From positions 74,516 through 138,515 of IMG/VR virus record IMGVR_UViG_2843020057_000001: 64,000 nucleotides of DNA. The stretch is one strand, 5' to 3'. The notes under the pieces were generated by a model, which made no database searches, was not told the DNA's origin, and worked only from the letters and a program-made list of their open reading frames with translations. Positions 1,219 to 63,400 of the stretch are shown here, piece by piece (positions within the stretch are counted from its first letter, which is position 1; the number at the start of each line of letters is the position of its first letter). The position numbers and the translations under genes were made by a program. Source of the DNA: a virus (taxonomy: Duplodnaviria; Heunggongvirae; Uroviricota; Caudoviricetes).

Positions 1219-1285
1219 AATTAAAACCTCGTTTAATAGGAAAACGCTTATGATAAAATAATAAGGCAGGCAAGTTTCAAGGACG

Positions 1286-1965
1286 GTGGCCGACGCGTAT
1301 TTCGGAGGTGGTTCAATGAACTTCACCATTAAGAAAGGGCTGTTGGCACATGAGCGCTTACCAAGCACTTATGCTAATGTTGGCCTTTGCGACCTTCGTG
1401 GTTGCATTGCTGACCTTTATTTTCTCATTTTGTTGAAAATAAAAGATCGTCCTGTTAACTTTGGCCAGTTGCGGACGATCTTTTATTGATTCAATGTAAC
1501 TAGGCCACCGTCTTTTTAACGGGCCTGCTTTTTGTGTATCTATATTATAGCATGAAAGAGGGAAATTGAGTAGTCAGTGAATACTCAGTGATGTGTTCAT
1601 GAGTCTTTCATGCTATAACCAGTCATTAAAATTTTTGTTTTAATGCGAGGGAAATAACCTAAAACAAAAATTTTAATGACAGGTAGATAAACAAGAAAAC
1701 AACTATCCCCTATGGTAGTTGTCAATAGTATCAACCACTGCTCATTCATGTTATAATATAGATACACGAAATGCAGGCCCGTTTCAAAGACGGTGACCTG
1801 GTTACTTAGAACTAATATCGTCCGTAACCGGCCAAAGTTAGTAGGACGGTTTTTTATTATGCACAGAATGTGAAAATAAAAGTCAGCAAAGCAATTATAA
1901 AAGTTGCAAAAGCCAGCATTAACATAAGTGCCTGGTAAGCGCTCATGTGCCGAAAGTCCTTTCAT
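1286..1965. repeat. foldback element: ~165-bp inverted repeats (1326-1492 vs 1798-1962, ~80% id) around a ~300-bp core of nested perfect palindromes
   Basis: Outer IR arm ggccaccgtc...gggcctgc (1503-1528) pairs with gcaggccc...gacggtgacc (1771-1796). Inner 17-bp IR tgtgtatctatattata/tataatatagatacaca. 21-bp IR gtcattaaaatttttgtttta/taaaacaaaaattttaatgac. Hairpin+T-run units gatcgtcc...ggacgatc (1445-1490) and cgtcc...ggacgg-ttttttatt (1818-1862). Confidence 0.6.
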
Positions 1966-11206: not shown

Positions 11207-14180
11207 TTTCTAATTTATTAATCAAGTCATGTACTTCTTGTTCACTCGTAGCCATACGATAGTAAACCCCTGATTCTCTCAAATGATCAAAATATTTCTG
11301 CTGAATAATACGGATTTCATCATCACCAAGTCGCATATTCTCTGCTTTAGTTTCAATTACAAGATATACTGGCTTATTGCCATGCTCGATCTTAAATATA
11401 AAATCTGGCGTAGTTGTTCCGTTATCAAAACGTGGAATCTTAATAGCCCTCTTAGGTAGTTTTCCAAATACACTAATCTTGGGGCCATATGATCGTTTCA
11501 ATATTTTCAGCTCTGGATCAGCACTGTCATATCGCAGTGGTGGCCGATCATACAGGTATTTCTCATCAGAAGACGAATCGGATTGGTAAACACCCAACAC
11601 ACTTGCTGGCACTGAATCAACAAATTCATGTTTCTTCGCATTATAAACTGAAGTAGACGCTGAGAAATCTAATGGCTCGTAGCTGTATGAAGTTTTAATT
11701 CTCTCATTAAATTGTTTATTAAAAGTATGAATCAAATTGCCCAATGTTTTTTCATTAATGTACTTCTTATTGTTTTTTAAACGCTTAATCGCCTTAATCA
11801 TCAGATTATTCAGTAAATTAACTGATAGGTCTGTTTGCTGGGCTAAAATCTTAAGAAACTTACCATATTTCATTGGTGGATAATCAACGCCATAATCACT
11901 CTGCGTTTCTTTAAGCGAGGCCGAACTATCATTAACGTCAACCTTTTGATGAATCATTTGAGGACGTTGTAAAACAAAGACCTTATTATCACTATCATTG
12001 AAAACATTGCGAGCAACTGTTTCGGCATCTTGATTAACTGATGGAGTAAATTTAATCATCCGACGTTTAGCTAATTGCAACCACAAGTTCTTTAATTGCT
12101 GCCAATTTTGCTTGCGTAGCTTAACATTTGTGCTGTCTTTTGAATTTTTATCTCGAACCTTATCCTTAGCAACTTTAGTTTCTTGGACTAATTCTGGATA
12201 AAGATGACACAACGCATCATAGCCGGTCATCATTTGACCATCTAATTCAACGTTTTCTTTAAATTTGTTAGAACGAGTAATCACATTATGGGCATCTAAA
12301 TCATCAAGTAGCTGGTCCTCATCAAACTTAGGATCAGTTTTTTGTTTAGCTTTAACAATCAGCTTGATCATGTCATCAGTTAATTCTTCTTGGTTCAGTT
12401 TTATCGGTGAATCATCATTAATTTTACCTACTAACTTTTGAGCAAAATCTCGTTCATCATAACCTATTAAGAAAGATAGACGACTCTGCCACTCATCCTG
12501 ATTCAAACGGTGACCAGTTTCATCAACTGGAAGCCGTAAACCACGACCAACTTCCTGAATCTTGTTGATTTCTGAGCCAGAAGTCCGCAACTTAGCAATC
12601 GTAAAGACATTTGGATTATCCCAACCTTCACGTAGCGTCCACTTAGAAAACAGAAAGCGACGAGTAAGCCAGTTACCGTCTTTATCCTTAAAGCTAAGCA
12701 ACTTTTCCTTGTTGTTTAAAATATCCTCAACTTCCGCCTGGATATCCGCATCTGAACTGTCACGATCCTTGCTGAAATAACTGGCATAAACGTTCTGGTG
12801 TTCCGACTGTAAACTCTTCAAGGTAGCCAGTAAAAAGGAATGATACTCTTTTTCTCGGTCATCAATTGCTAATTCATAGTGATCAATTAATGTCTTCAGC
12901 TTTTTAGTTAAAATTTCTTCGAAGTGCTGAGCAAGCCAACCTTTACTATTGTTTTCTGCACGAAAGCTGGAAATACTATCAATGAAGAATAAAGACAAGG
13001 TTTTTATCTTAGGTGCATTATCCCCCGAATTTGGACGCAAGAAGTTCTCCTCTTCCGCCTTAAAATGACAATCTAATGCTTGCGAAATAATCTCATCCTG
13101 ATAATTTTGAGCAAAAGTACCAGGAATCAGCTCCATATCTTTGGACAAAGCTAATCCATTTGATAATTCACGGTCACCGACATAGGTAATATTACCCTCA
13201 AAGCCAGTATCGATGTCCGCTAAATTTTCACCGACGTTCATTGAATAATCTTTACCATCTTTAGTCAAGACTAATTCTTTATTTCTATTTTTAAATTGCT
13301 TGACTTTGTACAAGTTATTAGCTTGTTCTTCCGGCATATCTGGGTAATAGATATCGATTCCCTTAACTAAACCTTGATTAAAGCTATCGACGGCATCCAA
13401 GTTGAACTGAGGTTCACCACGGTAATAATCAATCTTAGTAACCTTGTTTTTGCCACGCCCACTTGTTGTTACCGGGAAAGTAGCCCCAAAGCGGACAATT
13501 AACTGAGGCTTCATCTCTTCAATATCTTTATAGAATTTTTTGCCCCGTGGGAAACGCTGCGGTTCATCAATAATCACCACTGGCCGCGTGGCAGCAATAG
13601 CTTGAAGTGGTTCGGTTTCTCCACCCAAGAGTGTTTGATCAAAAATGTATGGTTTTTTCCTACGTGGCATCATATACATAGAATGGAGCATTCCTTGGTT
13701 AATCAGCAAAACTTCAATTTGGTTAGCATTCTGCCTAGTTGCTTCCACAAATTCAGAAAGCTGAGCTGGGAAGTTACGGCGTCCGGAGCGCGCACTAAAA
13801 TCACCCGCGTTAATAACGTTTAATTGCACTCGGGTATTTTCATAAAATTCACTAAAGTGCTGCTTAGCATAATCACTACTGATAAAACTGCGGGTACCTT
13901 CCTTAATACTTGGACTTGGCACCGCAATCACGAACTTGAATAAGCCATACTTTTGGTGAAGGTCATACATCATCCGGGTGTAAACATAAGTCTTCCCAGT
14001 CCCCGTTTCCATCTTAATGTCAATGTTAGCTTTATCGTTATAACGGTATCTAATCAATGGATTGGCATAGATGTAATTAGCATTTGGGTCATTGGACATG
14101 GTGTCCATACCAGGAAATGCTTTATCAATGGCAGCTAAGGCATCTGTTTGGTGTTGTAAAGTTTCTAGTTTAATCTTCAT
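11190..14180 (-). CDS. res: Type III restriction-modification Res subunit (helicase + C-terminal PD-(D/E)xK nuclease)
   Basis: Walker A METGTGKTY. Motif II VIIDEPQRF. C-terminal nuclease-like PDFIF...LVIETKAENMR. Immediately downstream of mod with a 4-nt gap. Confidence 0.75.
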   Translation of the reverse strand: MKIKLETLQHQTDALAAIDKAFPGMDTMSNDPNANYIYANPLIRYRYNDKANIDIKMETGTGKTYVYTRMMYDLHQKYGLFKFVIAVPSPSIKEGTRSFISSDYAKQHFSEFYENTRVQLNVINAGDFSARSGRRNFPAQLSEFVEATRQNANQIEVLLINQGMLHSMYMMPRRKKPYIFDQTLLGGETEPLQAIAATRPVVIIDEPQRFPRGKKFYKDIEEMKPQLIVRFGATFPVTTSGRGKNKVTKIDYYRGEPQFNLDAVDSFNQGLVKGIDIYYPDMPEEQANNLYKVKQFKNRNKELVLTKDGKDYSMNVGENLADIDTGFEGNITYVGDRELSNGLALSKDMELIPGTFAQNYQDEIISQALDCHFKAEEENFLRPNSGDNAPKIKTLSLFFIDSISSFRAENNSKGWLAQHFEEILTKKLKTLIDHYELAIDDREKEYHSFLLATLKSLQSEHQNVYASYFSKDRDSSDADIQAEVEDILNNKEKLLSFKDKDGNWLTRRFLFSKWTLREGWDNPNVFTIAKLRTSGSEINKIQEVGRGLRLPVDETGHRLNQDEWQSRLSFLIGYDERDFAQKLVGKINDDSPIKLNQEELTDDMIKLIVKAKQKTDPKFDEDQLLDDLDAHNVITRSNKFKENVELDGQMMTGYDALCHLYPELVQETKVAKDKVRDKNSKDSTNVKLRKQNWQQLKNLWLQLAKRRMIKFTPSVNQDAETVARNVFNDSDNKVFVLQRPQMIHQKVDVNDSSASLKETQSDYGVDYPPMKYGKFLKILAQQTDLSVNLLNNLMIKAIKRLKNNKKYINEKTLGNLIHTFNKQFNERIKTSYSYEPLDFSASTSVYNAKKHEFVDSVPASVLGVYQSDSSSDEKYLYDRPPLRYDSADPELKILKRSYGPKISVFGKLPKRAIKIPRFDNGTTTPDFIFKIEHGNKPVYLVIETKAENMRLGDDEIRIIQQKYFDHLRESGVYYRMATSEQEVHDLINKLENGELD

Positions 14181-14183
14181 GGT

Positions 14184-16274
14184 TTAGTACCTCTTGATTA
14201 AAGTTACTTTACTGTCTAGCTGTTTTAAGCCATTTTCCAGTTCACGCAGTTCTGCCACGTTAAAGGAGTAGCCAAAAATAACCACACTTTGGATTTCTAA
14301 TTGACGAGTACCAAGTTGGTTGAGTAATTCTTTAGTTTGGCTTGCTCCCCAACCTTCATTAACCAAGTAAAGTCGATTATCTTCAACTTTATGCGCGGTG
14401 TAGTTATCAAACTTAACTTCTTCAACATCAGCATCAAATGGATAACCATCCTTAGCTAACCATGTAGTCAGAATAGTTTCTTCACCTGTGGCATCCCCAT
14501 CTATTTTTAGGCTTTCACTAGAAAAGCCATCGACCATATTGGTAAACAAGTCAGTGTTGTTTGGATTAAAGTCTTCAATATCTTCCAAGGTTTGCTTAAC
14601 TGGTTTGACAACTCGATAGTGCTTAAAGCTGCCGTCAAAGTCTTCAGGCAAAGTTAGTTCATTATCTTCACGAATCTTTTTAGCAGCACGACGAATACGT
14701 TCACGAGAGATTTCGTCGATGGATTTAAAACCAGCATCATATGCTGCTTTGCCACCTGTAGTAGGTATCTTTTGGCCCCTTTTATCTAAAATGGTTTTTC
14801 CCGTATCTTTATCAACTTTGTAAGTCTTTTCTGGTAACTGAACCATAATAAACTTACGATGTCCACCATCCTCAGCATTAAGTTGCATTACTGCATCTGC
14901 TGTAGTACCTGAGCCTGCAAAAAAATCAAAAACCGTAATATTTTTACTGCTAAACAACGTTAAAAATAATTTGATTAAATCAGTACTCTTTGGTGAAGAA
15001 AATACCTCACGGTTATCAAAAAGTAATTTGAGTTTTTGTTTGGCCTTTGTGGTAGTTAGATCTAGATGATAATCAGTAGGCTTATTGTTAATAATTGCTT
15101 GATACTTTAAATTGGTTACGATACTTTTTAATCTTTTCGTTGTACTAAAATTTTTTTCAAAAATTTTAGTATCTGTAAACTGTAACGAATTAGTTTCAAA
15201 AAGTTCCATAAATTTATCTATAGAGTACGTATTTTCTACAAATTTATTATTTCTTTCTGAAATATATCGAATATATCCTTCACCAATTAATTCATTATCA
15301 ATATCGAGTATGTCCTTCTCTTTTCTAAAATGAATTTTCTGTTTTTCGGGCTGATAGTAAACGCTGTAATGTTTTTTAGAACTGTAGTTAGTAACTACAT
15401 CATTAAATTTATTTTCCCCTACCAGAACGCGTTTTCCGCTATTATGAACGAAATTACCATTCTCATCTTTAATCATTTCTGTAGATCTTTTCGGTATGTT
15501 TTCAATAAATTTAGCTTCATTAATTTTTTTAGCGTATAAGATGGCAAACTCACTGCTAACGGAAATAAACTTAGAGTTTTTTCTGCCTTTAGGATTATTT
15601 TCGACTGATAAATTTCCAATAAAATTATCCTCACCAAACACTTCATCCATTAATAATTTTAAATTGGCTTGTTCATTATCATCTATAGAGACAAACATCA
15701 CGCCTTCATCAGTTAGTAGCCTTTTTGCCAAAGTTAACCTTGGATACATAAATGTCATCCATGCAGAATGACTAGACCTTCCTTGAATACTTTTTAGTCG
15801 TGATAGTTGATCATCGTTAAGTTCAAACATTTCTTTTAACTTATCATCAGAGTATTCAAAATTATCTGGATAAACAAAATCATCTTTACCAGTGTTATAT
15901 GGAGGATCAATATAGATCACATCAACCTTATTTGTATATGCAGTTTGTAAATGTCGTAATACTTCGAGATTATCACCAGTAAAGAACAGGTTATTACTGT
16001 CCTTCCCTTCACCCTTATTTTGTTTCTCATCAGGGACAATCACCGTTGTCGGCATCTCACCTGCTTGACGCCGCGCATAATCTTTACCAATGAAATCTAG
16101 CTGATAACCTTCACTAAGTTCATTGCTGTTCTTTTCTTCTAGTTGCTCCTTGAACTTTTCCAAATCGAAGAAGCCATTTTTATTAAAGAACTCTGGCAAT
16201 TTATCTTTCAATTCATTTAAAAAGGCTGTGTTCGGCTGTACGGATTCATTATATTTTTCAGCATCTGTCTTCAT
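14184..16274 (-). CDS. mod: Type III R-M Mod subunit, N6-adenine DNA methyltransferase (beta class)
   Basis: DPPY motif VIYIDPPYNTG precedes the FxGxG motif FDFFAGSGTTADA (circularly permuted order typical of Type III Mod). Confidence 0.85.
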   Translation of the reverse strand: MKTDAEKYNESVQPNTAFLNELKDKLPEFFNKNGFFDLEKFKEQLEEKNSNELSEGYQLDFIGKDYARRQAGEMPTTVIVPDEKQNKGEGKDSNNLFFTGDNLEVLRHLQTAYTNKVDVIYIDPPYNTGKDDFVYPDNFEYSDDKLKEMFELNDDQLSRLKSIQGRSSHSAWMTFMYPRLTLAKRLLTDEGVMFVSIDDNEQANLKLLMDEVFGEDNFIGNLSVENNPKGRKNSKFISVSSEFAILYAKKINEAKFIENIPKRSTEMIKDENGNFVHNSGKRVLVGENKFNDVVTNYSSKKHYSVYYQPEKQKIHFRKEKDILDIDNELIGEGYIRYISERNNKFVENTYSIDKFMELFETNSLQFTDTKIFEKNFSTTKRLKSIVTNLKYQAIINNKPTDYHLDLTTTKAKQKLKLLFDNREVFSSPKSTDLIKLFLTLFSSKNITVFDFFAGSGTTADAVMQLNAEDGGHRKFIMVQLPEKTYKVDKDTGKTILDKRGQKIPTTGGKAAYDAGFKSIDEISRERIRRAAKKIREDNELTLPEDFDGSFKHYRVVKPVKQTLEDIEDFNPNNTDLFTNMVDGFSSESLKIDGDATGEETILTTWLAKDGYPFDADVEEVKFDNYTAHKVEDNRLYLVNEGWGASQTKELLNQLGTRQLEIQSVVIFGYSFNVAELRELENGLKQLDSKVTLIKRY

Positions 16275-26004: not shown

Positions 26005-26064
26005 TGAGGTAGATGGGAATCGAACCCATATCCTAGCATGATCTACCAATTGAACTACTACCTC
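26005..26064 (-). ncRNA. 60-nt tRNA-like element lacking a canonical anticodon arm (pseudo/armless tRNA)
   Basis: Perfect 7-bp acceptor GAGGTAG/CTACCTC+A. D-arm GTTC-AATTGGTA-GATC. T-arm ATGGG-TTCGATT-CCCAT. Only 10 nt (CATGCTAGGA) where the anticodon arm should be. Confidence 0.3.
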
Positions 26065-26303
26065 CGTTGATTTAGTATACATTCATCAACGTCCCAAAGA
26101 TCTTATCTCGGCTTCAATTTATCGGAAGTGGAACCTTAGACGCTACGTTTCCTATTTATAGACGGATACACGTCTTCTTCGTTATCATCCACTCTGCCGT
26201 ACACCTTCATTGTGTATGATTGAGCTACTCTAGCACATAATGTGACGATCAATCACGTGCCGGAGGCTGGACTCGAACCAACAACCTGATGATATTCCGA
26301 ATA

Positions 26304-26678
26304 TGGAGTAGACGGGAGTCGAACCCGTGTCCAACCAAATCAGTTTCCAAATACATTTTAGACTTATTAGGATTATGTACTTAACTCTTAAGCTTAGACA
26401 GTCACACAATCATTTTCCAAAGGCTACCTAAACCGATCTAGTTTTATTACTTCATCACAACCAAACTAGCAAACGGCGGACAAAGACCAGAGGGGTGAAA
26501 TATGATAGCTAATATCCTTATCTGGTATCAAAATATTAACCAAGTGCCTATAAGCTAGGCAGCTAAAGCTGTAACTCTATGGTTATTTGCTTTTATATTT
26601 AAATGAAAGTATTTCGGCGTTATCTTCCGTAAGTCGTATTTAGGGCTTTATTTGACTGTCGAATCCATAAACTACCCC
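26304..26678 (-). ncRNA. ssrA: tmRNA (ssrA), tag reading frame ending ...ALAA-stop
   Basis: 5' end GGGGTAGTTTATGGATTCGACAG matches the tmRNA consensus GGGG...GGAUUCGAC. Acceptor GGGGTAG/CTACTCC with G3:U70 and A73 (Ala identity). 3' T-arm ACGGG-TTCGACT-CCCGT. Internal frame GCA AAT AAC CAT AGA GTT ACA GCT TTA GCT GCC TAG (ANNHRVTALAA*). Confidence 0.8.
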
Positions 26679-26740
26679 AGAATAGAGCTTTAAATCATAG
26701 CTCCAAATAATAATTCAAATCGACTTCTTAATGAAGTCTA

Positions 26741-26812
26741 TAACACGTACAGGATTCGAACCCATATCTCCACATTACCATAGTGGTGCTTCCCCATTTA
26801 AACTAACGTGTT
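26741..26812 (-). tRNA. putative tRNA-Thr(GGU), unusual A1-U72
   Basis: Manual fold. Acceptor AACACGT/ACGTGTT+A. D-arm GTTT/AAGC. Anticodon stem CCACT/TGTGG (one mismatch), loop ATGGTAA. T-arm ATGGG-TTCGAAT-CCTGT with wobbles. Confidence 0.45.
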
Positions 26813-27169
26813 ACTTATATATCAAAATATTTCTTGTGGTGGAACCCCTAACAGCTTTTGCCTTATTCCACATTTGTTCCTACTAGCTTCATAGGATGGG
26901 CATAGTCCTTATCCCTGCTAAGGGGCGCTGTCGTTACTCGCTGAATGTTTTGATATGTTCTTGTTAAGGGAGACCCATTTCGAGACCTTAACATCGCTAA
27001 CTTAGAAATCTCCTTTGTTCCTAATGCTAAAGACCGCGGGTGTTTCGGAACTCAGCGAAATTTCACTATTAACTGGTGATCAACCCCACTCACGGATTCC
27101 GCACATGCCTACGCTCCGTCAGCGAATATTGTACCTGTCTTTTATAAAATCCTGATTTTAAAAACAGGA

Positions 27170-27242
27170 TGGACCTTGCAGGACTCGAACCTACGACCGA
27201 GCGGTTATGAGCCGCCTGCTCTACCAACTGAGCTAAAGGTCC
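27170..27242 (-). tRNA. tRNA-Ile2(CAU, lysidine type) / Met-CAU
   Basis: rc reads GGACCTTTAGCTCAGTTGGTAGAGCAGGCGGCTCATAACCGCTCGGTCGTAGGTTCGAGTCCTGCAAGGTCCA. Cloverleaf is canonical. Sequence closely resembles Firmicutes tRNA-Ile(LAU). Confidence 0.85.
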
Positions 27243-27514
27243 AAAATGATAGACCATAAACCGCAAACTTGTCTATCCGTGAGCGTTTAATCCAATCTCA
27301 TATTTGCAACTATGTTTTCGGCAACTAAGCTCACAAGTATAAATGATTACTGCTGACACCAATGATCATTCATATCTGCTGACTCGATAGATGAATATCG
27401 TTACGACTGTGTCAGGTCGCCGTGTTACACCTAACAGGCGGAGGTTGTTTTAGTTAATTAATGTGTGCTTTTTAATTTTCACTGGCACGCAGTAGCACAT
27501 TTAAGGAACTGCAA

Positions 27515-27586
27515 AGCGGTTAACGAGACTCGAACTCGCGACAACAGCTTGGAAGGCTGTGGTTTTACCAGTTAAACTATAACCGC
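27515..27586 (-). tRNA. tRNA-Trp(CCA)
   Basis: rc GCGGTTATAGTTTAACTGGTAAAACCACAGCCTTCCAAGCTGTTGTCGCGAGTTCGAGTCTCGTTAACCGCT. Anticodon stem ACAGC/GCTGT, loop CTTCCAA. Confidence 0.85.
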
Positions 27587-27781
27587 ATTAGAGAGGTGAT
27601 TTATTTATATTCGCAGCTACACCCCACTGCTATCACATGCCAACAATACTAGGCATCCTACCCTACCCTCGTGTTGACTTCGAGACACCAGTTTTACAGT
27701 CTATGTTTCCAAGAACACACTGGATTTACTCTCCGCTCCGTTAAGTGAAATACAATTCTAGCGACGGCACACTAGAACCAA

Positions 27782-27855
27782 CTGCGAATATCGGATTTGA
27801 ACCGATGACACAAGGTTTAACAGACCTCTGCTCTAACCAACTGAGCTAATTCGCA
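27782..27855 (-). tRNA. tRNA-Asn(GUU)
   Basis: rc TGCGAATTAGCTCAGTTGGTTAGAGCAGAGGTCTGTTAAACCTTGTGTCATCGGTTCAAATCCGATATTCGCAG. U1-A72 and G73 as in bacterial tRNA-Asn. Anticodon loop CTGTTAA. Confidence 0.85.
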
Positions 27856-28360
27856 AAATTTAGAGAACACGATTAATCACTTCATATTCTCAAAGTAACA
27901 AGGATAGTTGATTAGTCCTATCGCTGAGGCGCACATTTAAGTACGTTGCTCTCCTTTACATACCAACCACTACATTCAAAGCGTTGACGCTTGCTACTCT
28001 AACTGCCCAGGACAGGATTCGAACCTGCTACCTCAGGGTCAATGTTTTTCAACACGCGCGTGTATCCCTGCGCTCTCGCCAAATATTTCGAGCTACCTAG
28101 ACGTAATAATGTCCACCCAGAAACGTTAGATAGTGAACTAATAAGTTAAGAGCTTGTTGACTGTGCTAAGTATCAGTCTGATTACTCTTAGAGCTTATAT
28201 CTTTTTATGGACATTGACTTAGCAATTCTGTCCGCGATTAATCACTACTATTTCTAGTAGATACCTTCGCATTGCGAAGATGTGGCCTATAACTAGGCAA
28301 ATCATTTTCAGACAGTTCAGTCGATCTTAAGCTGACCATTCTATAAAGAACTATCTGAAA

Positions 28361-28415
28361 TAGTCCTGTTGGGAATCGAACCCAATTAATCTTCCTAGTA
28401 CCATCAGACAGGACT
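28361..28415 (-). ncRNA. 55-nt armless tRNA-like element
   Basis: Perfect acceptor AGTCCTG/CAGGACT+A and T-arm TTGGG-TTCGATT-CCCAA. Only 25 nt between acceptor and T-arm. Shares a CTAGGA core with the 26005-26064 element. Confidence 0.25.
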
Positions 28416-29186
28416 CCAAACATAATACATGTATTTTTTCGTTACACCATCTTTAACGTGCGTGTTGAAAATTGTTACTAAAAGTCGCCGACACGGGACT
28501 ATCTTTCCGAAACCACAATTTAGGGGAGTGGCAATCCCGACAATAAATGTCGATTAAGGAGTCAAAGCTCCACGTTAATCTGATTAATCTTTAACAAGAC
28601 AGCCTCTTTCTTATCTGTCATACCTATTTCTTTTGCATTCTCTGAGCACGTGCTCTCTTGAACACCGAGGTGGGTAATTATGCTGTATTTCGAAGCCCTA
28701 CGTGAGCCGTAATCAGATTATATAAATAAGTTTATTATCTTATCGCTGTTACAACAGCAATTTAAAGATGGAAAACTTTATAAAAGAAGCATTTTACTAA
28801 CAGAAGGCATAAACTGTCATTCTTCCCACTAGCGGTCAGAACTTTTTCTAGACTGCTTTTTTATTTTTCAAATACTCCCGCCAATAACTAGTATGACTTG
28901 CAATCTTGTATTTGTATTATTCAGGGTGTAGATTACCAGAGCACCCGAACCTGCAACCCGAGAATTAAACTCAGCATTAACTTAGGCAATATCTGCATCG
29001 CAGGTAGTCGCACACGCAACCATAGCAATAAGAAGCGTGGCATCAATCACATTACGAGCATTAGAAACTCCTCCAGTTGTGAGTAGGATACCTCGTATAA
29101 ATCACATTACTGCCATTTATACTCAAGCGCTTCAACCGACACACCTGTTGCCGGTTTCCCTATTATACATATCCATATAACAGAAA

Positions 29187-29269
29187 CACCTAGAGAGGGA
29201 TTTGAACCCCCGAACCCGAAGGAACGGTTTTGGAGACCGTCGCGTTTGACCAGACTTCGCTATCTAGGT
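29187..29269 (-). tRNA. 83-nt type-II-like tRNA with anticodon loop CTCCAAA (CCA) and 12-nt variable region
   Basis: Acceptor ACCTAGA/TCTAGGT+G (7 bp perfect). Anticodon stem ACGGT/ACCGT perfect. Variable region TCCTTCGGGTTC with a UUCG-like mini-hairpin. T-arm GGGGG-TTCAAAT-CCCTC. Confidence 0.4.
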
Positions 29270-29424
29270 ATTAATAACGTGCCATGCCAGCGTAAACACG
29301 TTATTAGATCGAATTGAAAAATGTAAAGGTAAAGGTATATGGAAAACATAACCTATTGAACATACGTTAGGTGTTTTTACATTCCAAACGTTTTCCGTCA
29401 TTTGAAACAACCTATTGCTAGGAA

Positions 29425-29493
29425 TTTCGGCAATGGGAATCGAACCACATATCTACACCGCACAATGTTGCTCTACCATTGAGCTATGCCGAA
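29425..29493 (-). ncRNA. tRNA-like element with irregular anticodon arm (possible pseudo-tRNA)
   Basis: Acceptor TTCGGCA/TGCCGAA+A perfect. Canonical D-arm GCTC-AATGGTA-GAGC. T-arm with one bulge. Only 18 nt for anticodon arm plus variable loop. Confidence 0.35.
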
Positions 29494-55005: not shown

Positions 55006-55530
55006 TTATAGATTTTCTTCTTTGAATTGACTAATGATTTCATCGGCATGATTGTTAAGCATTTCTTGATAGTCGTATTCGGTCATGCTTTCACAATTAC
55101 CGCAACCGTTAATAAAGATGTAAGGATCAAGCCAATTGTGAATATCGCCAAAGAACACGGCTCGCGCTACTTCTTGCCGTGATGAAAACATGGTGTCAAA
55201 GAAATCATCATCAAAATCGTATACATCCTCACAGCCGGTTGCTTCACGATCATCTAGGGCGTTGTATACATCCTCGATAGTGTCATAGTCCTCGAGTGCT
55301 TCGGCTAATTCATTCAGAGCGTATAAGTTGTCGTATTCACCAATCTTGAAAGGTGCTTCATAATCACTGATAAACCATTCATCGTGGTAACCTTGCTTGC
55401 TATCACCGCCCAGGTCTAACTTGTCCAAAATATCCTTGTTCACATCATCAACTGGCAAAGTTGTCCATTGTCCAGTAAGTTCACCATCGTTGTACTTCGC
55501 TAAGTTTGAAACAAATACTTTAATTTCCAT
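55006..55530 (-). CDS. ardA: ArdA antirestriction protein (DNA mimic, anti-Type I R-M)
   Basis: N-terminus VFVSNLAKYNDGELTGQWTTLPVDD aligns with Tn916 ArdA VYIANLGKYNEGELVGAWFTFPID. ~170 aa and highly acidic. Confidence 0.75.
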   Translation of the reverse strand: MEIKVFVSNLAKYNDGELTGQWTTLPVDDVNKDILDKLDLGGDSKQGYHDEWFISDYEAPFKIGEYDNLYALNELAEALEDYDTIEDVYNALDDREATGCEDVYDFDDDFFDTMFSSRQEVARAVFFGDIHNWLDPYIFINGCGNCESMTEYDYQEMLNNHADEIISQFKEENL

Positions 55531-55807: not shown

Positions 55808-56343
55808 AATATCAAAACCCTTCTAATTTATTTCAGCGGTTGTTATTAATCGCTTTATATAGAGTCTTATCGTGTTGATAAGGCTCTCTAAAAACAATTA
55901 ATAGTGTCTTTTTCACTTTCATAGGCTTAAACCAAGAATATTAGCAAGTCCCTACTGGTAGTATCACGGTGCCTTTATCTACTATTGATTAGGCGGTTGA
56001 CGTGGAATCACCTACCCCTACCGTACCGGGTTATTTACCAACTTTTGATATTGCGGAGTTGTTCTCAGTTCTACTGAAAGATTGAACCGCGGTTATTAAG
56101 TTTTCAAAGGTCAACGCCCTGATTTTTCGCGTGTCTGTCACCCGCGCGGGTTCCCGTGACGAATTTTAACCTAATGATAGTCTGATATATGGTGTTTCCC
56201 TTGCATTGAACCCTATCCGATATGATGGTCTAGTTATGGTTCGCGCCCCCACCTTTTTCGTGGGCTATCAGTCCCGTGGTAAGTTTTTCGACTTTCAAGG
56301 TCAGTTTTTTGAATTGGTAGCTTTCCAATGTAATCTGAACATT

Positions 56344-56373
56344 TTTATATAGACTTAAGTCTATATAAATCAA
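56344..56373 (-). promoter_or_regulatory. promoter P1 (minus strand, TTGATT-18-TATAAA) with 22-bp perfect palindrome in spacer
   Basis: rc reads ggTTGATTtatatagacttaagtctaTATAAAaa. Confidence 0.5.
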
Positions 56374-56428
56374 CCTTTTGTTTGTTAATCGCTCAAGGTT
56401 TGCGATTGCTTGTTTCTTTACGGCTTTT

Positions 56429-56457
56429 ATTATATAGACTTAAGTCTATATTGTCAA
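56429..56457 (-). promoter_or_regulatory. promoter P2 (minus strand, perfect consensus TTGACA-17-TATAAT, palindromic operator in spacer)
   Basis: rc reads cTTGACAatatagacttaagtctaTATAATaaaagcc. Spacer is exactly 17 nt. Confidence 0.7.
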
Positions 56458-56552
56458 GTCTTAATTTTAGAATTTTTTAGTGGTTGACCTCGGCGACAAG
56501 TAATATAGCTGAGTGAACTCACTTTCAATTCATTTATTAAGTTTGTGCCTTT

Positions 56553-56581
56553 ATTATATAGCCTTAAGTCTATATTGTCAA
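56553..56581 (-). promoter_or_regulatory. promoter P3 (TTGACA-17-TATAAT)
   Basis: Same unit as P2, with one mismatch in the palindrome (tatagccttaagtctata). Confidence 0.7.
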
Positions 56582-56663
56582 GAAGTAATTTTGATTATTT
56601 TTGAAAACCTATGCTAGTTCGATGACTGCTATTTTTGTTTTCTTAATCAACTTTACGGCCTTT

Positions 56664-56692
56664 ATTATATAGCCTTAAGTCTATATTGTCAA
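56664..56692 (-). promoter_or_regulatory. promoter P4 (TTGACA-17-TATAAT)
   Basis: Same unit. Copies are spaced ~111-125 bp. Confidence 0.7.
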
Positions 56693-56705
56693 GAAGTAAT
56701 TTTAG

Positions 56706-56740
56706 AATAAAAAAAACAATAGTAAATGAATACTATTGTT
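56706..56740 (-). terminator. rho-independent terminator of the small ORF 56733..56960
   Basis: Minus strand aacaatagta-ttcatt-tactattgtt followed by ttttttttatt. Confidence 0.55.
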
Positions 56741-56960
56741 GTAAGTCTTTTAAGCGTTGTTCAATATCAGAATGTAATTCTTTTAAGTCGTCAATGTATT
56801 GTAAACGATTTTCGTTAATTGCCTGCGATAGTTTAGTAGACTTTTTAAGATTAACATTAATAAAACCGCGCGCCTGACCCTTGCGGTCCCAGTATGTTTT
56901 TTTCAGTGGATTTTCAGCACGATATTTTTTTGTCGCTTCCTTTTGTGCCTCGCTTACCAT
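56733..56960 (-). CDS. small basic protein, candidate DNA-binding regulator of the palindromic operators
   Basis: 75 aa and K/R-rich. Preceded at 56975-57000 by a partial copy of the repeat unit, with TATAAT at 56994-56999 and a half palindrome. Confidence 0.4.
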   Translation of the reverse strand: MVSEAQKEATKKYRAENPLKKTYWDRKGQARGFINVNLKKSTKLSQAINENRLQYIDDLKELHSDIEQRLKDLQQ

Positions 56961-57040
56961 TTACTCACCCCCTTTTTGTATAGCCTTAAGACTATTATAA
57001 CATACTTACAACCCTAACAGAATATAAAAATAATACCCCT

Positions 57041-57715
57041 TTTTATTTTTATATAAGGAAAGAAAAAAATAATAATGGTATTGATATATATGTATATATG
57101 TATGTATGTATATGTATATGTATGATTGAGTAAGTGAGTGATATATATGTATATGTATATATGTATGTATATGTATGTATGGTTATGTATGTATATATGG
57201 TTGTATATATGGTTGTATATATGTATGTATATATGTATGTATATATGTATATATGTATGTATGTATATGTATGTATATATGTATGTATGGTTGATTGAGT
57301 GAGTGATTGAGTGAATAAGTGAGTTAGTAAGTGAGTGAATAAGTGAGTGAGTGTATGTATGATAACGCTTTCATATGTTATTGTATGATGGATCAAATGA
57401 ATATGTATATGTATTGAGTGAGTTAGTAAGTGAGTTGGCTGGTAGGGTAAACGGTTGTTTATTATATAAGGGGCGTGGATTGAGTTATTAAGTGAGTGAG
57501 TAAGTGATATATATTATTGTGTTTGTTTGATGTGTTTGGTTTATTTGGTCGGTGGTATGGTGTGAGTGTAGTGTAGTGATTAATTAGTGAGTTTGGTTGG
57601 TAGGGTTATTGTGTTAGGTTGGTTGGGAGTGGGTTGGGTAAATATATAGTTTTTTATTATGGTTGGGGGTGTGTTTATTATTATGTTTGTTTGGTGTGAT
57701 AGCTGATTACTATAT
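57041..57715. repeat. ~675-bp strand-asymmetric low-complexity region: top strand essentially C-free, built from (TATG/TGTA)n and (GTGAGTRA)n microsatellite-like repeats and G/T-rich GGTTGG tracts
   Basis: Direct count gives ~11 C residues in ~675 nt. Repeats tatgtatgtatatgtatatg..., gagtgattgagtgaataagtgagt..., ggttggtagggtt...ggttgggagtgggttgggt. Confidence 0.85.
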
Positions 57716-58218
57716 ATCAAATTCGATATATTTAAGTTAGTGAAACGGATATAATAGCCCTAATCATTTTTATATTTATCTTTTTAAAATTACAATTGTA
57801 AACCCCTATAAATAAAATTACCCCTTATCATTAGATAAGGGCTTTATTTTTCTACTGTTAAAAATTAATGTAATCGTTTTCATTAAATAACAGTTATTAT
57901 TTTATATTTTTCTGGCAAATGAACGGGGGTTATTTTACTCAAAACGCCTTAATTTTTAGGGGAATTTTTAGACTAGTTGCTTCACTCACACACCACAAAA
58001 ATATTCCCGTACCTTCCCACTCCACCTCTATCCTCTTCACTCCATATCACCCTATATTAATACCCAAAACACACCCTTTTTACACCCTATTTTCATCACC
58101 CTTAATTCTTGAAAATAATTTTCATAAATTTTCATAATTACCCCTTCTTCTCATATTTCTCCATACAAAAAACAGTCCAAACATACTAACTTAATAGTAC
58201 ATTCAGACCAAAGCTCCC

Positions 58219-58539
58219 CTATATTCTCTTTACATATTCGTTTAAACAAATTATCAATTCAACATCTAATCCATCCATATAGTCATCATATACAGCAGAA
58301 TAATCATCATCAAATTGACTCAAAACATATAATAATACTCCGTTATATATCCTATCAGGACACCTTATTATCCCTTGAATTAATGTCATACTTTCCAATA
58401 AATTATCTTCATATGTTTCTCTGTACTCTTTTTGCAATAGATAATTTAAATACCAGATTAGATCATTGTCTCTATCCTGTCCAATTATATTTATTAGCTT
58501 TTTCACCACTATATTAATGATAGAATTACTGCTGCCCAT
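58219..58539 (-). CDS. hypothetical protein
   Basis: ORF with plausible composition. Only gene in the ~3-kb non-coding block. Confidence 0.35.
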   Translation of the reverse strand: MGSSNSIINIVVKKLINIIGQDRDNDLIWYLNYLLQKEYRETYEDNLLESMTLIQGIIRCPDRIYNGVLLYVLSQFDDDYSAVYDDYMDGLDVELIICLNEYVKRI

Positions 58540-59873
58540 AATCCCGGTTACCTCACGATTAATAATTATTTTAAACGTATGTTCTTTTTATACTATACAC
58601 AAACAATTGTTCGATAGCAACCCTTTATAACAATTGATACATGTATCGTTCTGTGAGATAAAATATAAATTATGTACCATCAAATGATTTAACTTAATAA
58701 AATTTAGCGCAACCATTTTCACGGGTTTATGAAAACAAGAAAATTACCCTCCCCGCTTTCATGTCATTATTTTCATAAAATCTCTAAATTGACCCTTTAA
58801 TATTCTTTCTTAAATCGTCGTAATTACCAATGACTGCATATTGCATTCACAAATTTTCGTCTTCTACATAATCATTCATATTGAAATCAATACTACTTTG
58901 TGAATTTTTCTTCACTAAGTTGAAAAGTTGATTTTTGAAGTCATATATCATTCAAAAATCATTATGAAAACATCGTTTTATGTACACCTAAATATTTTTC
59001 GTTGTTCTCTATTCTATTGGATAAATCTAAAATTCAAGAATTCTAAAATATCCGCACCTTATTACTCATATAACTAACCCTATCGAAACTCCCTATTTTT
59101 CGTTTCAATATTTTTATTCAATTCACTAAATTTTCTCCTCTAAAATGAACCAATACTAAATCCTATTTAATAGGAGCTAGTAGAATATTTTTACAATTAT
59201 TATTCACTTGAGACATCTATTAGTACAACTTCGATAATACAAGTGGTTTCAAACATCTAATTCCAGAAAATTTCACAAACTTAAAAAGGGTGCGGGGTAT
59301 TTTTACTCTAAGAACCTATAATTATATGTTTCGTATTGGTTCATTATTTTCACTCAGACTATTTTTCATAATTCCGCCGCCATTTATCCATTGTAATAGG
59401 AAAAAAACTCTATTTTCTATCACTGCTTTTATTGTCGCTTGTGAAGTCATCAAAAAATGCTGTTTCATTTTTATGTAACTATCCTCGCCTTATTTTTCTC
59501 TTCAAACACAGCCAAACACCAACGTAGAATGGAGTTGACGGGGCATAAATCAAAATTACATTAATTTATCTAAATCATCTTTTAACCCCATTATTCATTG
59601 TTCGTTTTGATTGTTTATGAGCAACAATTATGTAGTTAAATTATCGAAATAGCTATTCTACAAGCCTTTTAAATAGAAAACAGCGATAGCAAATAAATAC
59701 CACCGCTGAAATAATTACGGATTACTTACGTAACCACTTACTAATCTTTTTAATTAAATGTTTAACGTGCTTATTAGGCACAAGGATAATTACTAGGCAC
59801 CAATGCAACATCAGGAGTTACCTCCTTTCTGCACTAATCGGGTTTTCTACGCCCGCACAAATGTGCTTAACAA

Positions 59874-59997
59874 TTGTATCATAGAATTAATATGTTATAA
59901 TATACATAGGATAATTATTAGGCCGTGTGCTCGTGAGTGCTTTCTAGCTCACGAATCGGTTTAACGTGGGGCGCCCTGATAGGCGCTCTTTTTTTAT
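59874..59997 (+). ncRNA. candidate small RNA: consensus promoter (TTGTAT-16-TATAAT, 59874-59901) + two hairpins + intrinsic terminator (59969-59997)
   Basis: cgtgag-tgctttctag-ctcacg hairpin. GGCGCC-ctgata-GGCGCT stem followed by tctttttttatt. Confidence 0.45.
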
Positions 59998-60161
59998 TTA
60001 CAATGTGTTATCAAGAATGATAGATGAATGATTTAATCATTCTTACCAGCTCCATTATTTATATTGAATCATTTTTGAATGACTATTGAATCACTTTATC
60101 ATTCAAAATTATTAGCCTAAGCAATAATAAAAGCTCCAAGTTAATTCTTGGAGCTTATTTT

Positions 60162-60503
60162 TTACAATGATGACATCATATCTAAAGTTGTACTTCCACC
60201 ATCTTCATCATCATCATTCTTATCTTTAGTTTCTTTTGGTTTAGGTTTACTTACAGGTTTTTTTTCTGAAGTTTCAACCATCTTATCAACTATCTTCTCT
60301 TCTCGTTGAACAGACTTGGGGGCTCCATTCAAATTAACATTAACCTGGCTTAATACTGCATTTAAGTAATCACCATCACCAAAATTTGCAACAATTGTCC
60401 TGATTACTGCATCAAATGACCCAGTTTTATTATTTTGGTTTGCTAACCATTTAGCAATATCGCTATTCGAATCATACCTATAAGTAAATGTCTTCATACT
60501 CAT
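60162..60503 (-). CDS. parR: ParR-like adaptor (second gene of parMR operon)
   Basis: Immediately downstream of parM. Small, with a K/P/E-rich disordered tail. Confidence 0.45.
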   Translation of the reverse strand: MSMKTFTYRYDSNSDIAKWLANQNNKTGSFDAVIRTIVANFGDGDYLNAVLSQVNVNLNGAPKSVQREEKIVDKMVETSEKKPVSKPKPKETKDKNDDDEDGGSTTLDMMSSL

Positions 60504-60515
60504 ACTAATTCACCA

Positions 60516-61724
60516 CTATTTAGCGTGATCTACAATAAATTCAAGACCGTCCCTATTCAATGTCTGAGCCTTTTCTTTTGGAATCCAAATTACGGGAACT
60601 ACTTGACCACCGTTAAAGTCTTTTAGCTTATCTTCCAACTTCGTGCGGAGCATTGTTTGGTCTTTCATAGGAATTGATCCACCGCCATGAACGTAAACAA
60701 CTTCAATTGTAGCTCCTGCTTTACGAACAGAACGACTAACTTCAGTCACAATACGGTCACAAAATGGTTCTAATTGTGCATAAACAACCTTTTGTACTGC
60801 CTCATACCGTCCTCTTGATAATGGACTTGGTTTTGTTGCTAAGAATTCTTTTAATTCTGCAACACTGCTAAAGTTGAACTTCTTATCTCTAAGTACCTCA
60901 AGTGCTTCTTCAAGAGCATTATCATATCCTTCTGACAATGAATATGATGCAGATACAAGAGCTTTTCCATTAACAATTACAACAATATCAACTGTTCCGG
61001 CACCAATATCAATAGAAACTACATTTTTGGCTTGGATTAAGTCCTCTGCTTTGACTAAGGAAGCCATTTCTGGATAACGTGTGTCGAAATCTTCTTTAAT
61101 CTTCTTGGTTAAATCTTTATCTTTCCCTGTTGAGATAAATAATTGGGCTGTTTCACCTTCTGTAGCAACAAATACCTTATCAAATTCAATCGTCACCGTA
61201 ATAGGGTTTTTAAAATTATGAAAAGTTACTTGGTGAGTACTTCCTGCATATCGTTCACGATACATATTCTTAGTCTCAATATTGCTACCTTCTTTAACAG
61301 GAAGAGCTGCCGCCATACGGGTATTTACTTTAAGTGGTTCTGATAAGTCTTTACCTTCCTCATATGCTTGTTCTACGGCTGCACCTGCAATCATACTCAA
61401 TGTAAGAATTAAAGAATAGTCACTTTCGGCCTTGCCAGCATAATCATTAATATCGAAATGAGTTAATGGTAAGTTTTGGTCAATGGCATTTTGTCCGATC
61501 AAGAATCGACCTGGCGTCTTTATTGAACTACTAGAAATTGTTACATCCATATGATTAAGAAATTCTTTCATATATTCGTCTTTTTGACTCTTGCTTTCGA
61601 ATTCAACTGGGGAAGCAATATCTTGTTCACGTTCAATGGTAAATACAGATGGGAATTGAATTTCCTTATCGTCAATTATTGCTTTGACTGAGCCATATCC
61701 TAAGTCGTTTGCTGTTTTCATCAT
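60516..61724 (-). CDS. parM: ParM/StbA-family actin-like segregation ATPase
   Basis: Actin-fold phosphate 1 DLGYGSVKA. ~400 aa. ...DIGAGTVD... phosphate 2 and ...VHGGGS... adenosine motif. Confidence 0.75.
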   Translation of the reverse strand: MMKTANDLGYGSVKAIIDDKEIQFPSVFTIEREQDIASPVEFESKSQKDEYMKEFLNHMDVTISSSSIKTPGRFLIGQNAIDQNLPLTHFDINDYAGKAESDYSLILTLSMIAGAAVEQAYEEGKDLSEPLKVNTRMAAALPVKEGSNIETKNMYRERYAGSTHQVTFHNFKNPITVTIEFDKVFVATEGETAQLFISTGKDKDLTKKIKEDFDTRYPEMASLVKAEDLIQAKNVVSIDIGAGTVDIVVIVNGKALVSASYSLSEGYDNALEEALEVLRDKKFNFSSVAELKEFLATKPSPLSRGRYEAVQKVVYAQLEPFCDRIVTEVSRSVRKAGATIEVVYVHGGGSIPMKDQTMLRTKLEDKLKDFNGGQVVPVIWIPKEKAQTLNRDGLEFIVDHAK

Positions 61725-61739
61725 GTTTATTGTCCTCCG

Positions 61740-61870
61740 CTTCGTTTATGATTCTATTATACTGCAATTTGAATGATTTTTGAATGATAATTGCGGTCAT
61801 ATATCATTCATTTAGATTATTATCGTTAATTTTGATTAATATGAATGATATATGAATGATTAAATAAGTC
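61740..61870. repeat. iteron-like TGAATGAT / ATCATTCA repeats upstream of parM (candidate parC centromere)
   Basis: tttgaatgatttttgaatgataatt...atatcattcattt...atatgaatgatatatgaatgatt. Similar repeats at 60003-60110 downstream of parR. Confidence 0.5.
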
Positions 61871-61988
61871 TATATTATATATAACTCACTTAACACAATA
61901 TATTATATACTATATATTTAACATTTACCACTATGGGGTAGTTTTTTATTAAAAAAATAAAAAGGCACTATTTGTGCCGTCTTACTTT

Positions 61989-63181: not shown

Positions 63182-63400
63182 TTTATCAAAACTATCACTT
63201 TGTGTTAAGTGTTAAATATATAATATAGTCCCCCATAATGTTAAATTAACAATGTATAATATATTGTTAACAGTACATAGTGTATTATATATATATTATT
63301 GTGGTAAATATATTATATATAATGCGCAATATATCATGTATTTACCACTAGTTGCATCTCAATATTGACTTTCTTAGATTGAAATGCAATCATGTAGGTA
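63182..63400. promoter_or_regulatory. AT-rich palindromes upstream of parA (candidate operator/parS)
   Basis: ttaacaatgtataatatattgttaa and ggtaaatatattatatataatgcgcaatatatcatgtatttacc inverted repeats. Confidence 0.35.

Follow-up and report, generated by a model that had tools for sequence, protein, structure and literature searches.

The 64,000-nucleotide (nt) stretch of DNA analyzed here (hereafter the window; positions 74,516 to 138,515 of IMG/VR record IMGVR_UViG_2843020057_000001) belongs to a Limosilactobacillus reuteri phage-plasmid of ~100-130 kb with distant SP-beta-like traits. Its DNA matches nine L. reuteri plasmids, and one matching plasmid of 129 kb carries terminase, tape-measure, holin, and other late genes adjoining its RepA_N replicon; the phage collection gave no match to the window DNA at either sensitivity. 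The window encodes RepA_N, a ParM/Alp7A-like actin, ParR, ParA with a DUF5388/RepC partner, and ArdA, together with a RecD2-like helicase, a DnaB-like helicase, a Sak4-like annealing protein, and integrases, with the helicase and recombination genes at 33-41 kb. Between ~5.8 kb and 63 kb, the genes lie almost without exception on the minus strand (hereafter the gene strand). Among them lies the noncoding element that is the subject of this study. It consists of two blocks of extreme strand asymmetry: block A (57041..57715), with a plus strand almost devoid of C, and block B (57985..58200), with a plus strand almost devoid of G and a gene strand that is G-rich and almost without C.

Read in the gene direction, the parM-parR operon (61724-60162, minus strand) is followed by a type-I-toxin-like module and ~1 kb of noncoding DNA, and then by an acidic open reading frame (ORF) of 106 amino acids (aa) and uncharacterized function (58219..58539, minus strand), which is the last gene ahead of the blocks. 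Directly after this ORF is T1 (58173..58210, minus strand), a predicted terminator-like AU-rich hairpin of 16 pairs with a U6 tract that was also predicted at the same site in the related locus L002. Block B, a conserved core, an AT-rich spacer containing the hairpin T2, and block A come next. The first gene after block A is a 75-aa ORF (56733..56960, minus strand; PHROG 2277), with a promoter region that includes copy 5 of the palindromic operator of an early control region (56348..56996, minus strand). All five copies of this operator, TATAGRCTTAAGYCTATA, in the 64 kb fall at 56348-56996, against a chance expectation of 0.11. Three copies are situated between the -35 and -10 elements of perfect TTGACA-17-TATAAT promoters at 56692, 56581, and 56457. 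These three tandem promoters, 111-124 bp apart, are directed at ArdA (55006-55530) and the extended series of small genes that follows. In other lineages, the operator sequence is different and occupies the same place.

Direct base counts on the plus strand gave 186 A, 10 C, 185 G, and 294 T for block A (675 nt) and 72 A, 70 C, 4 G, and 70 T for block B (216 nt). The window as a whole has 20.4% C and 14.6% G, from which ~138 C would be expected in block A and ~31 G in block B. The C residues of block A are at 57366, 57368, 57372, 57394, 57439, 57452, 57474, 57550, 57703, and 57710, with a longest C-free run of 326 nt (57040-57365), and the G residues of block B are at 58009, 58111, 58175, and 58197. 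GC skew in 200-nt windows was +0.80 to +1.00 along block A and went down to -0.88 in block B. Expressed for the gene strand, block A is 43% A, 27% C, 1.7% G, and 28% T (690-nt extract). These counts bear out the preliminary description of the window, which had reported ~11 C in block A, a skew near +1, a G-poor stretch at 57985-58200, and a purity highly unusual for phage or bacterial DNA. When 150-nt windows containing no more than four G or C were sought, the two blocks were the only regions found in the 64 kb, and 49 kb of late genes of one relative yielded none. The purity had also been described as mirrored. The mirror symmetry is limited to composition and does not extend to arrangement: on the gene strand, C is dispersed in block A and GGG runs are in excess in block B, that is, dispersed G in one block and clustered GGG in the other on their G-rich strands. 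A C-free strand rules out TTGACA on both strands and any palindrome that contains G or C.

Tandem Repeats Finder recovered each of the repeats named in the preliminary description. A microsatellite of alternating pyrimidine and purine, (TATG)n / (TATATATGTATG)n, covers 57085..57289. It is followed by an array of an 8/12-nt unit, TGAGTGAGTAAG (57292..57353), in which RAGTGART recurs in an 8-nt register, with shorter copies at 57405-57437 and 57475-57507 (57481-57507 by Tandem Repeats Finder), and by a GGTTGG-rich 22-mer repeat at 57584-57627. ACTCACT (AGTGAGT on the plus strand) is present in block A at 6-13 fold over a first-order Markov model in all 11 block A lineages, and there are 11 copies of AGTGAG in block A compared with seven in the remaining 63 kb. 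Alignment of related sequences delimited two islands inside block A. Island 1 (57441..57501; in gene orientation TTCACTCACTTAATAACTCAATCCACGCCCCTTATATAATAAA(T/C)AAC) contains a perfect TATAAT without a good -35 element, and island 2 (57356..57402; in gene orientation CACTTGATCCATCAT(T)ACAATAACATATGAAARCRTTATCAT) contains four of the ten C residues of the block. The sequence TTGACA-N17-GTAAAT, found in block A of other lineages, was rejected as a promoter: its -10 element matches at three of six positions, the promoter scan did not report it, and it is absent from the window.

Block A does not encode a protein. The 115-aa ORF at 57049-57396 (minus strand) is a low-complexity read-through of a G-free strand, on which TAA is the only possible stop codon, and had correctly been dismissed as spurious in the preliminary description. 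No genes were called in the proximal part of block A (locus positions about 10322-11500) on ten related contigs. The G-quadruplex-forming potential that had been attributed to the G/T tracts is weak. We required four tracts of at least three G separated by 1-7-nt loops or, alternatively, a G4Hunter score clearly exceeding 1.5; neither strand had a four-tract G3 motif, the region held three two-tetrad motifs, and the top G4Hunter score was 1.44 (57612-57646). A search against Rfam 15 at permissive thresholds returned only sub-threshold matches, with mir-297 (48 bits against a threshold of 90) being an artifact of the TG/TA microsatellite. Ideas that involve a MazF decoy (UACAU), type III antitoxin repeats, TRAP or Hfq binding, or CodY boxes were dropped as no feature supported them.

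The spacer between the blocks (57716..57984) is AT-rich, has a normal strand composition, and contains T2 as well as the palindromes TTACAATTGTAA and AATAAC.GTTATT. T2 (57822..57841) is a GC-containing hairpin of 8 bp, CCCTTATC/GATAAGGG, bordered left and right by T-rich tracts, and was predicted as a terminator on both strands, with the better U tract in the plus direction; in L002 it was predicted in the antisense direction only. Its stem is retained in most lineages, and paired changes occur at three stem positions in two sequences. At the boundary of the spacer and block B is a conserved noncoding core of ~75 nt (57924..58000; in gene orientation TTTTGTGGTGTGTGAGTGAAGCAACT...TTAAGGCGTTTTGAGTAAAATAACCCCCG; invariant columns 11-87 of the alignment), which is nearly invariant across all three lineages compared. 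Neither the core nor the spacer matched Rfam or yielded a convincing conserved RNA fold, and the consensus fold of the spacer consisted only of the terminator and small palindromes. We rejected a coding role for the plus-strand ORF 57919-58137 that overlaps the core, as a stop codon interrupts it in the L025 lineage and a G-free frame is expected to yield such an ORF as a by-product.

On the gene strand, block B has GGG runs above expectation and four copies of AGGGTG at ~58046-58103. Its outward plus strand has a promoter-like site, TTGAAA-18-CATAAT, at 58109-58138, which was also predicted at the homologous place in L002. Two TTTTCATAA motifs are found in the block at 58119-58137. Six of the 14 copies of TTTTCATAA in the window cluster at 58119-59371, around the 106-aa gene and in both orientations, with 3.5 copies expected window-wide, and the divergent lineage L025 has more than eight copies of TTATGAAAA in its block B. 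These two motifs may be candidate binding sites for some protein.

Conservation was examined in 16 related loci representing three lineages, obtained from NCBI, ENA, Logan assemblies, and complete plasmids. The order gene, C-free block, hairpin spacer, and G-free block is present in 14 of the 16; the other two, L011 and L025, keep block A and have a weaker block B. Block A varies from 360 to 690 nt in length, and the pattern is found in every lineage examined, including one with a 106-aa homolog only 29-31% identical. Over 15 loci, the gene strand of block A has frequencies of.40-.45 A,.27-.31 C,.02-.05 G, and.23-.28 T. Because the layout is shared by 14 of 16 loci and is kept when the neighboring protein has fallen to ~30% identity, the element is neither an assembly artifact nor drifting junk. 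The preliminary description had named two observations that would have spoken against it, an assembly artifact and a lack of positional conservation, and neither was made: the pattern is seen in more than 15 independent assemblies, complete circular plasmids included, and its position is conserved. The blocks are thus a real, conserved, and unusual noncoding feature. Retention over such divergence in a packed, capsid-limited genome, along with C enriched to 27-31% on the gene strand, argues that the pattern is maintained by selection, and the C enrichment means that it is not a product of deamination alone.

Sequence turnover within this layout is rapid. Ten loci match the window at 98-100% identity over the module that comprises the 106-aa gene, block B, and the spacer; block A aligns with the 16 loci over 10-84% of its length at 74-92% identity. 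Homology between relatives breaks within block A, and the modules on its two sides have discordant histories; for example, the 106-aa module can be 98-100% identical while parM-parR aligns over ~6-10% of its length. The least conserved part is (TATG)n: (TATG)n / (CA/TA)n tracts total 172 nt in the window, 104, 68, 44, or 32 nt in five loci, and zero in nine. Conserved islands of 45-70 nt are kept across lineages, a third being absent from the window. G is present in 42 alignment columns of block A on the gene strand; in 69% of these no more than a quarter of the sequences have G, 12% are conserved, and the usual alternative is A. Such rare, private G residues may be due either to selection against G or to mutation biased from G to A, as the mismatch spectra fit both. 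A recombination or phase-variable tract was among the roles put forward in the preliminary description, which listed several and chose none, and is partly supported by the present analysis. Homology breaks inside block A and repeat lengths of 0-172 nt among isolates are in line with such a tract; phase variation itself is not, given that the tract is outside any real gene, not between a -35 and a -10 element, and >50 nt upstream of the 75-aa promoter.

We tentatively interpret the blocks, with T1 and T2, as a two-way transcription insulator with Rho-loading zones, a reading that is possible rather than probable. The blocks lie between parM-parR and the 106-aa gene on one side and the five operators and three perfect sigma-70 promoters on the other, all on the minus strand; T2 is flanked by both blocks, and T1 precedes T2 in the gene direction. 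Because the maintenance genes and the early operon are co-oriented, read-through between the two modules would have to be stopped. The insulator would part the plasmid-maintenance genes (parM-parR and the 106-aa gene), which would be constitutive, from the operator-repressed early operon (the 75-aa ORF, ArdA, and others). T1 and T2 would halt part of the read-through between these co-oriented modules, and both look leaky. RNA escaping the central hairpin would be nearly G-free, C-rich, untranslated, and unstructured, so that Rho could load on it and kill read-through ahead of the next module. The interpretation supposes transcription in both outward directions, Rho action at the blocks, and selection on that role. 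The rule that outward RNA be G-free would act on RNA that escapes either way: the mirrored C-free/G-free pattern would arise because one rule applies in both directions, and slippage and recombination could reshuffle the sequence freely, composition being all that matters.

The predicted properties of RNAs leaving the spacer (minus strand of block A and plus strand of block B; outward RNAs) are consistent with this interpretation. Their fold energies per 100 nt are -3.1 kcal for block A and -2.9 kcal for block B, against -23.1 +/- 3.1 and -21.0 +/- 4.0, respectively, for background windows, whereas the inward RNAs give -22.9 (block A, an ordinary value) and -11.9 (block B). Start codons number two (block A) and one (block B) in the outward RNAs versus 102 and 23 in the inward RNAs, and the outward RNAs have no Shine-Dalgarno-like 4-mers. 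YC dimers occur at 11.3 and 21.3 per 100 nt of outward RNA compared with 6.3 in the background, and a pattern of regularly spaced C (C-N10-12, five times) has 37 and 16 matches. The outward C/G ratio is ~18 over 675 nt in block A and 17.5 over 216 nt in block B. Of all 78-nt windows along the gene strand of the 64 kb, only 0.8% attain a ratio of 8, and those combining 15 or more C with no more than 2 G are confined to block A and one other site. On the gene strand of block A, runs of two or more C number 19-30 versus 33-39 expected, in all 11 lineages. Because C in block A is thus dispersed beyond what composition predicts, it fits the spaced C of a Rho-loading site and argues against elements built on G clusters.

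Rho binds unstructured, ribosome-free RNA that is C-rich and G-poor (PMC6407284), and the RhoTermPredict definition of a site for Rho utilization (rut site) is 78 nt with C exceeding G and regularly spaced C (PMC6407284). The outward RNAs show the sequence features of such sites, namely, C exceeding G with spaced C over 70-80 nt and a lack of structure and translation. A C/G ratio of at least 3 is reached by only 37 of ~4,500 RhoTermPredict predictions in E. coli (PMC6407284). Leaky intrinsic terminators are backed up by Rho in mycobacteria and E. coli (bioRxiv 10.1101/2022.07.21.500918), and Rho has been detected in the proteome of Lactiplantibacillus, a Lactobacillaceae relative rather than L. 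reuteri itself (PMC10927959). By analogy, the element is most like a rut region that backs up intrinsic terminators: in both, C-rich, G-poor, unstructured, and untranslated RNA lies 3' of terminator hairpins at an operon boundary, and the element would be defined by composition, not sequence. It differs in being ~10 times longer and far purer (C/G ~18 over 675 nt), in having two zones of opposite polarity around one hairpin along with conserved sequence islands, and in belonging to a Lactobacillaceae host; the likeness is one of sequence features.

Several points weigh against an insulator of this kind. Rut sites tolerate G and need ~80 nt, whereas block A has 1.5% G over 675 nt. Such purity goes far beyond the needs of Rho loading and hints that the constraint is more stringent or of another kind. 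Within block A, the (CATA)n portion has very few YC dimers (2-5 per 75 nt). Specific recognition, over composition alone, is suggested by the islands conserved in block A and by its enriched ACTCACT. Block B, with excess GGG runs on its G-rich strand, is no true mirror of block A. Finally, the window has no plus-strand gene to the left that would need insulation, and the plus-strand promoter-like sites there are weak.

Phage-plasmids must keep maintenance genes on while an adjacent, co-oriented early program is silent, and little is understood of how the two are insulated, above all in Gram-positive hosts, in which few studies have dealt with Rho. If the insulator interpretation is true, a function would be written purely in base composition, as doing without a single one of the four bases eliminates start codons, Shine-Dalgarno sites, RNA structure, and consensus -35 boxes at a stroke. 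The locus would then be a natural test case for read-through control by Rho or other means in lactobacilli and offer a design principle for synthetic insulators. Whether or not that interpretation holds, the locus is of practical use as a marker and is a recombination joint on plasmids from a probiotic species.

A role at the level of DNA, in replication or recombination, is somewhat unlikely. The locus could be a lytic origin or another site at which one strand is exposed; the strand whose 5'->3' direction leads away from the spacer might have to stay hairpin-free, or the G/T-rich strand running toward the spacer might be the substrate of the Sak4-like recombinase, RecA, or a single-strand-binding protein. 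A softer version sees in the low-complexity tract a recombination joint between gene modules, in keeping with the homology breaks inside block A and the discordant histories of its flanks. The polarity is symmetric about an AT-rich spacer with a nearly invariant ~75-nt core, and the element encodes a Sak4-like annealing protein and DnaB-like and RecD2-like helicases. By the same logic as for the RNA folds, the G-free strands would be structure-free as single-stranded DNA, and a purity beyond the needs of Rho would be less puzzling if any C in an exposed strand were harmful or a target of deamination; deamination alone, however, would not raise G to 27-28%. The hallmarks of an origin are missing. 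There are no DnaA-box matches in 55900-60700, and the whole-window count is that expected by chance; the replication genes are 15-20 kb away, the plasmid origin region adjoins repA, and no repeat is common to the blocks and a C-free stretch inside repA. The skew polarity, with a G-rich top strand on the left and a C-rich one on the right, is of the terminus type rather than the origin type. To our knowledge, Firmicute Chi sequences all contain C and hence cannot occur on a C-free strand, which also counts against this role.

An R-loop origin, which the preliminary description had suggested, is not supported. In R-loop systems such as immunoglobulin switch regions, ColE1 RNA II, and mitochondrial conserved sequence block II (CSB II), long stretches made up of short degenerate repeats have G confined to one strand. 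The element has this make-up in common with these regions, as well as T-rich tracts after G runs (57612-57670). It differs in that runs of GG or longer and GGG or longer are below expectation in block A in all 11 lineages, with weak G-quadruplex potential, and in lacking both a convincing promoter for a G-rich RNA and the origin hallmarks. Inward promoter candidates at block A match at only 9 of 12 positions (57005 and 57048, plus strand). In other lineages, the 69-aa gene described below points into block A but has its own terminator, and block B is reached by read-through past T1. Should the function nevertheless be exerted on DNA, it would imply that phage-plasmids replicate or recombine by way of a strand-specific step not described before.

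We also considered an element encoded by composition and specific to one strand, which we regard as unlikely. It would have two arms, each free of one base, around the conserved core, or be an insulator with a stricter, nonclassical mechanism. The exposed strand might be kept hairpin-free or base-specific, and the locus might be a site of lytic initiation, recombination, or single-strand loading. Such an element would be a new class in phage-plasmids.

It is distinctly unlikely that block A is an array of repeats bound by a protein (iterons, sites resembling a centromere, or landing sites of a regulator, for example) and owes its strand purity, as a by-product, to the repeated C-free motif AGTGAGT / RAGTGART. 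The motif's enrichment in all 11 lineages, its 8/12-nt register, the conserved islands, the RepC/DUF5388 adaptor encoded by the plasmid, and the clustering of a second motif, TTTTCATAA, agree with such an array. Tandem duplication inflates k-mer counts, however, the motif is scattered in other lineages, the motif-free parts of block A are equally G-free, and one motif leaves block B unexplained. Short C-free iterons in direct and inverted arrays are known in pAD1 (TAGTRRR) and pBMB165 (AT[A]GTGTAA) (PMC9743546, PMC1626470), and arrays of short C-free units are found here on a RepA_N plasmid with RepC/DUF5388. Like partition iterons, block A has tandem repeats of one unit. The known RepB/RepC 8-bp iterons directly flank repB-repC, whereas block A is ~4.3 kb from parA-repC, which has 8-mers of its own, and the long tandem array is lineage-specific rather than retained among relatives. 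Moreover, both partition operons are already flanked by their own candidate sites. TGAATGAT-type repeats, direct and inverted, are located on both sides of parM-parR (61740-61860 and 60000-60110) and are likely ParR centromere sites, and 8-mers resembling GTGTTAAG, TGTTAAAT, and GTGGTAAA flank the parA-DUF5388(RepC) operon on both sides (63195-63345 and 61880-61935), the same flanking arrangement as in pAD1- and pBMB165-type plasmids. The latter site overlaps a 66-nt G-free run (61869-61934).

That the blocks are functionless low-complexity DNA, produced by replication slippage at a module junction and kept pure by repeats copying their own composition and by strand-asymmetric mutation bias, seems quite improbable. 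Sequence and length do turn over fast, the microsatellite is present only in some lineages, homology breaks in block A, and the G residues are mostly private variants, as a strong G->A bias would give. Yet the pattern is kept at 360-690 nt in block A of all lineages examined, with neighbors down to ~30% identity, in a capsid-limited and otherwise tightly packed genome. Unrelated motif families (CATA, ACTCACT, CCAACC, and AAACA) all follow the same rule, gene-strand C is enriched to 27-31%, beyond mere G loss, and a second block of opposite polarity lies across a terminator, with nothing similar in the other 110 kb examined.

Phage T7 has at its left end a repeat-rich terminus followed by promoters A1-A3 and the anti-restriction gene 0.3. 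A virion DNA end or packaging start at the spacer, with G-rich strands running 5'->3' toward the ends, is very improbable in spite of a telomere-like polarity, a strand-pure stretch that can hold no G/C-bearing palindromic restriction site, and a T7-like succession of a repeat-rich, strand-biased noncoding stretch, three perfect tandem promoters, and an anti-restriction gene within ~1-2 kb of the spacer: nothing marks a genome end in this circular plasmid prophage, contigs of 100-130 kb run through the site, no virome contig with the 106-aa protein was found, and terminase and late genes, near which a packaging or terminal-repeat region as once suggested would be sought, are ~12.6 kb from the blocks in one relative, on the far side of repA. 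In SP-beta-like phages, packaging is of the headful type, from a pac site at the beginning of the late operon (PMC8270828).

Apart from the blocks, the genes of the locus gave few leads to their functions. The exact 106-aa protein is present on 23 contigs, and no locus encoding it was found in IMG/VR. Searches of the 106-aa, 75-aa, and 69-aa proteins against Pfam and PHROG were uninformative, with no family match at all for the 106-aa protein. Its structure model is all-helical and of low confidence (predicted local distance difference test [pLDDT] score, 64), too poor for a structure search; the 75-aa protein was confidently modeled as a four-helix structure, for which there were no structural matches. 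A 19-mer of the conserved core searched against one genome per species gave chance matches only (Bacillus and metagenome-assembled genomes). From the searches made, the family appears to be confined to L. reuteri. The blocks are not a general companion of ArdA operons, since two more distant ArdA-bearing Lactobacillaceae plasmids are without them. The adjacent gene occurs in 185 index blocks, and for 84 of these no contig of >2 kb carried it; the region is likely a trap for assemblers.

In many relatives, the interval from block A to the early promoters contains, on the opposite strand, a gene for a basic protein of 66-74 aa that is paralogous to the 75-aa ORF. This gene (69 aa in L002, at 11502-11711, minus strand; in the same place in L004-L007, L012, L014, and L025-L027) has its own long-hairpin terminator. 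The window lacks it and has the (TATG)n expansion there instead. The 75-aa and 69-aa proteins, a paralogous pair encoded on opposite strands, might form a divergent regulatory switch.

Within repA_N, a conserved 70-nt C-free, GT-rich stretch with TGGATTTA / TGGTTTAG units occupies the middle of the gene (3564-3633 in L001, and the same place in most other loci). Origin repeats of RepA_N plasmids are usually in the middle of repA. A handcuffing idea based on similarity of this stretch to block A was rejected, as matches between them are only 7-9 nt long, which is the chance level.

Upstream of the 106-aa gene, a 29-aa ORF, MLHWCLVIILVPNKHVKHLIKKISKWLRK (59722-59811, minus strand), has a strong ribosome-binding site, is conserved in one relative, and has no Pfam match; one hydrophobic half and a basic tail give it the shape of a type I toxin. 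Opposite it, at 59873-59996 (plus strand), are a TTGTAT-N17-TATAAT promoter and a well-folded 89-nt RNA with an intrinsic terminator (z = -3.4). The pair is probably a type I toxin-antitoxin addiction module situated just downstream of parM-parR. Between this module and the 106-aa gene, ~1.1 kb (58540-59700) has no ORF of at least 80 aa and no annotated function, the rest of the element being densely packed. On the other side of the blocks, an untranslated stretch of ~530 nt (55810-56340) lies 3' of the tandem promoters and ahead of the first small gene. Its GC content at approximately 55900-56300 is 40-47%, versus ~35% for the element, and Rfam finds nothing there; it could be a structured leader or a noncoding RNA.

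Three further features were noted elsewhere in the window. A transfer-messenger RNA (tag peptide ANNHRVTALAA) and eight tRNA genes are located a few hundred bases apart at 26005-29953. A type III restriction-modification system (mod, 14184-16274; res, 11190-14180) adjoins an SNF2-family helicase (8023-9915) and an uncharacterized 436-aa ORF, the group covering 8023-16274. Lastly, Rfam matched the Listeria small RNA rli28 at 1244-1420 (plus strand; 48.1 bits against a gathering score of 45), which is unexpected in a Limosilactobacillus plasmid.

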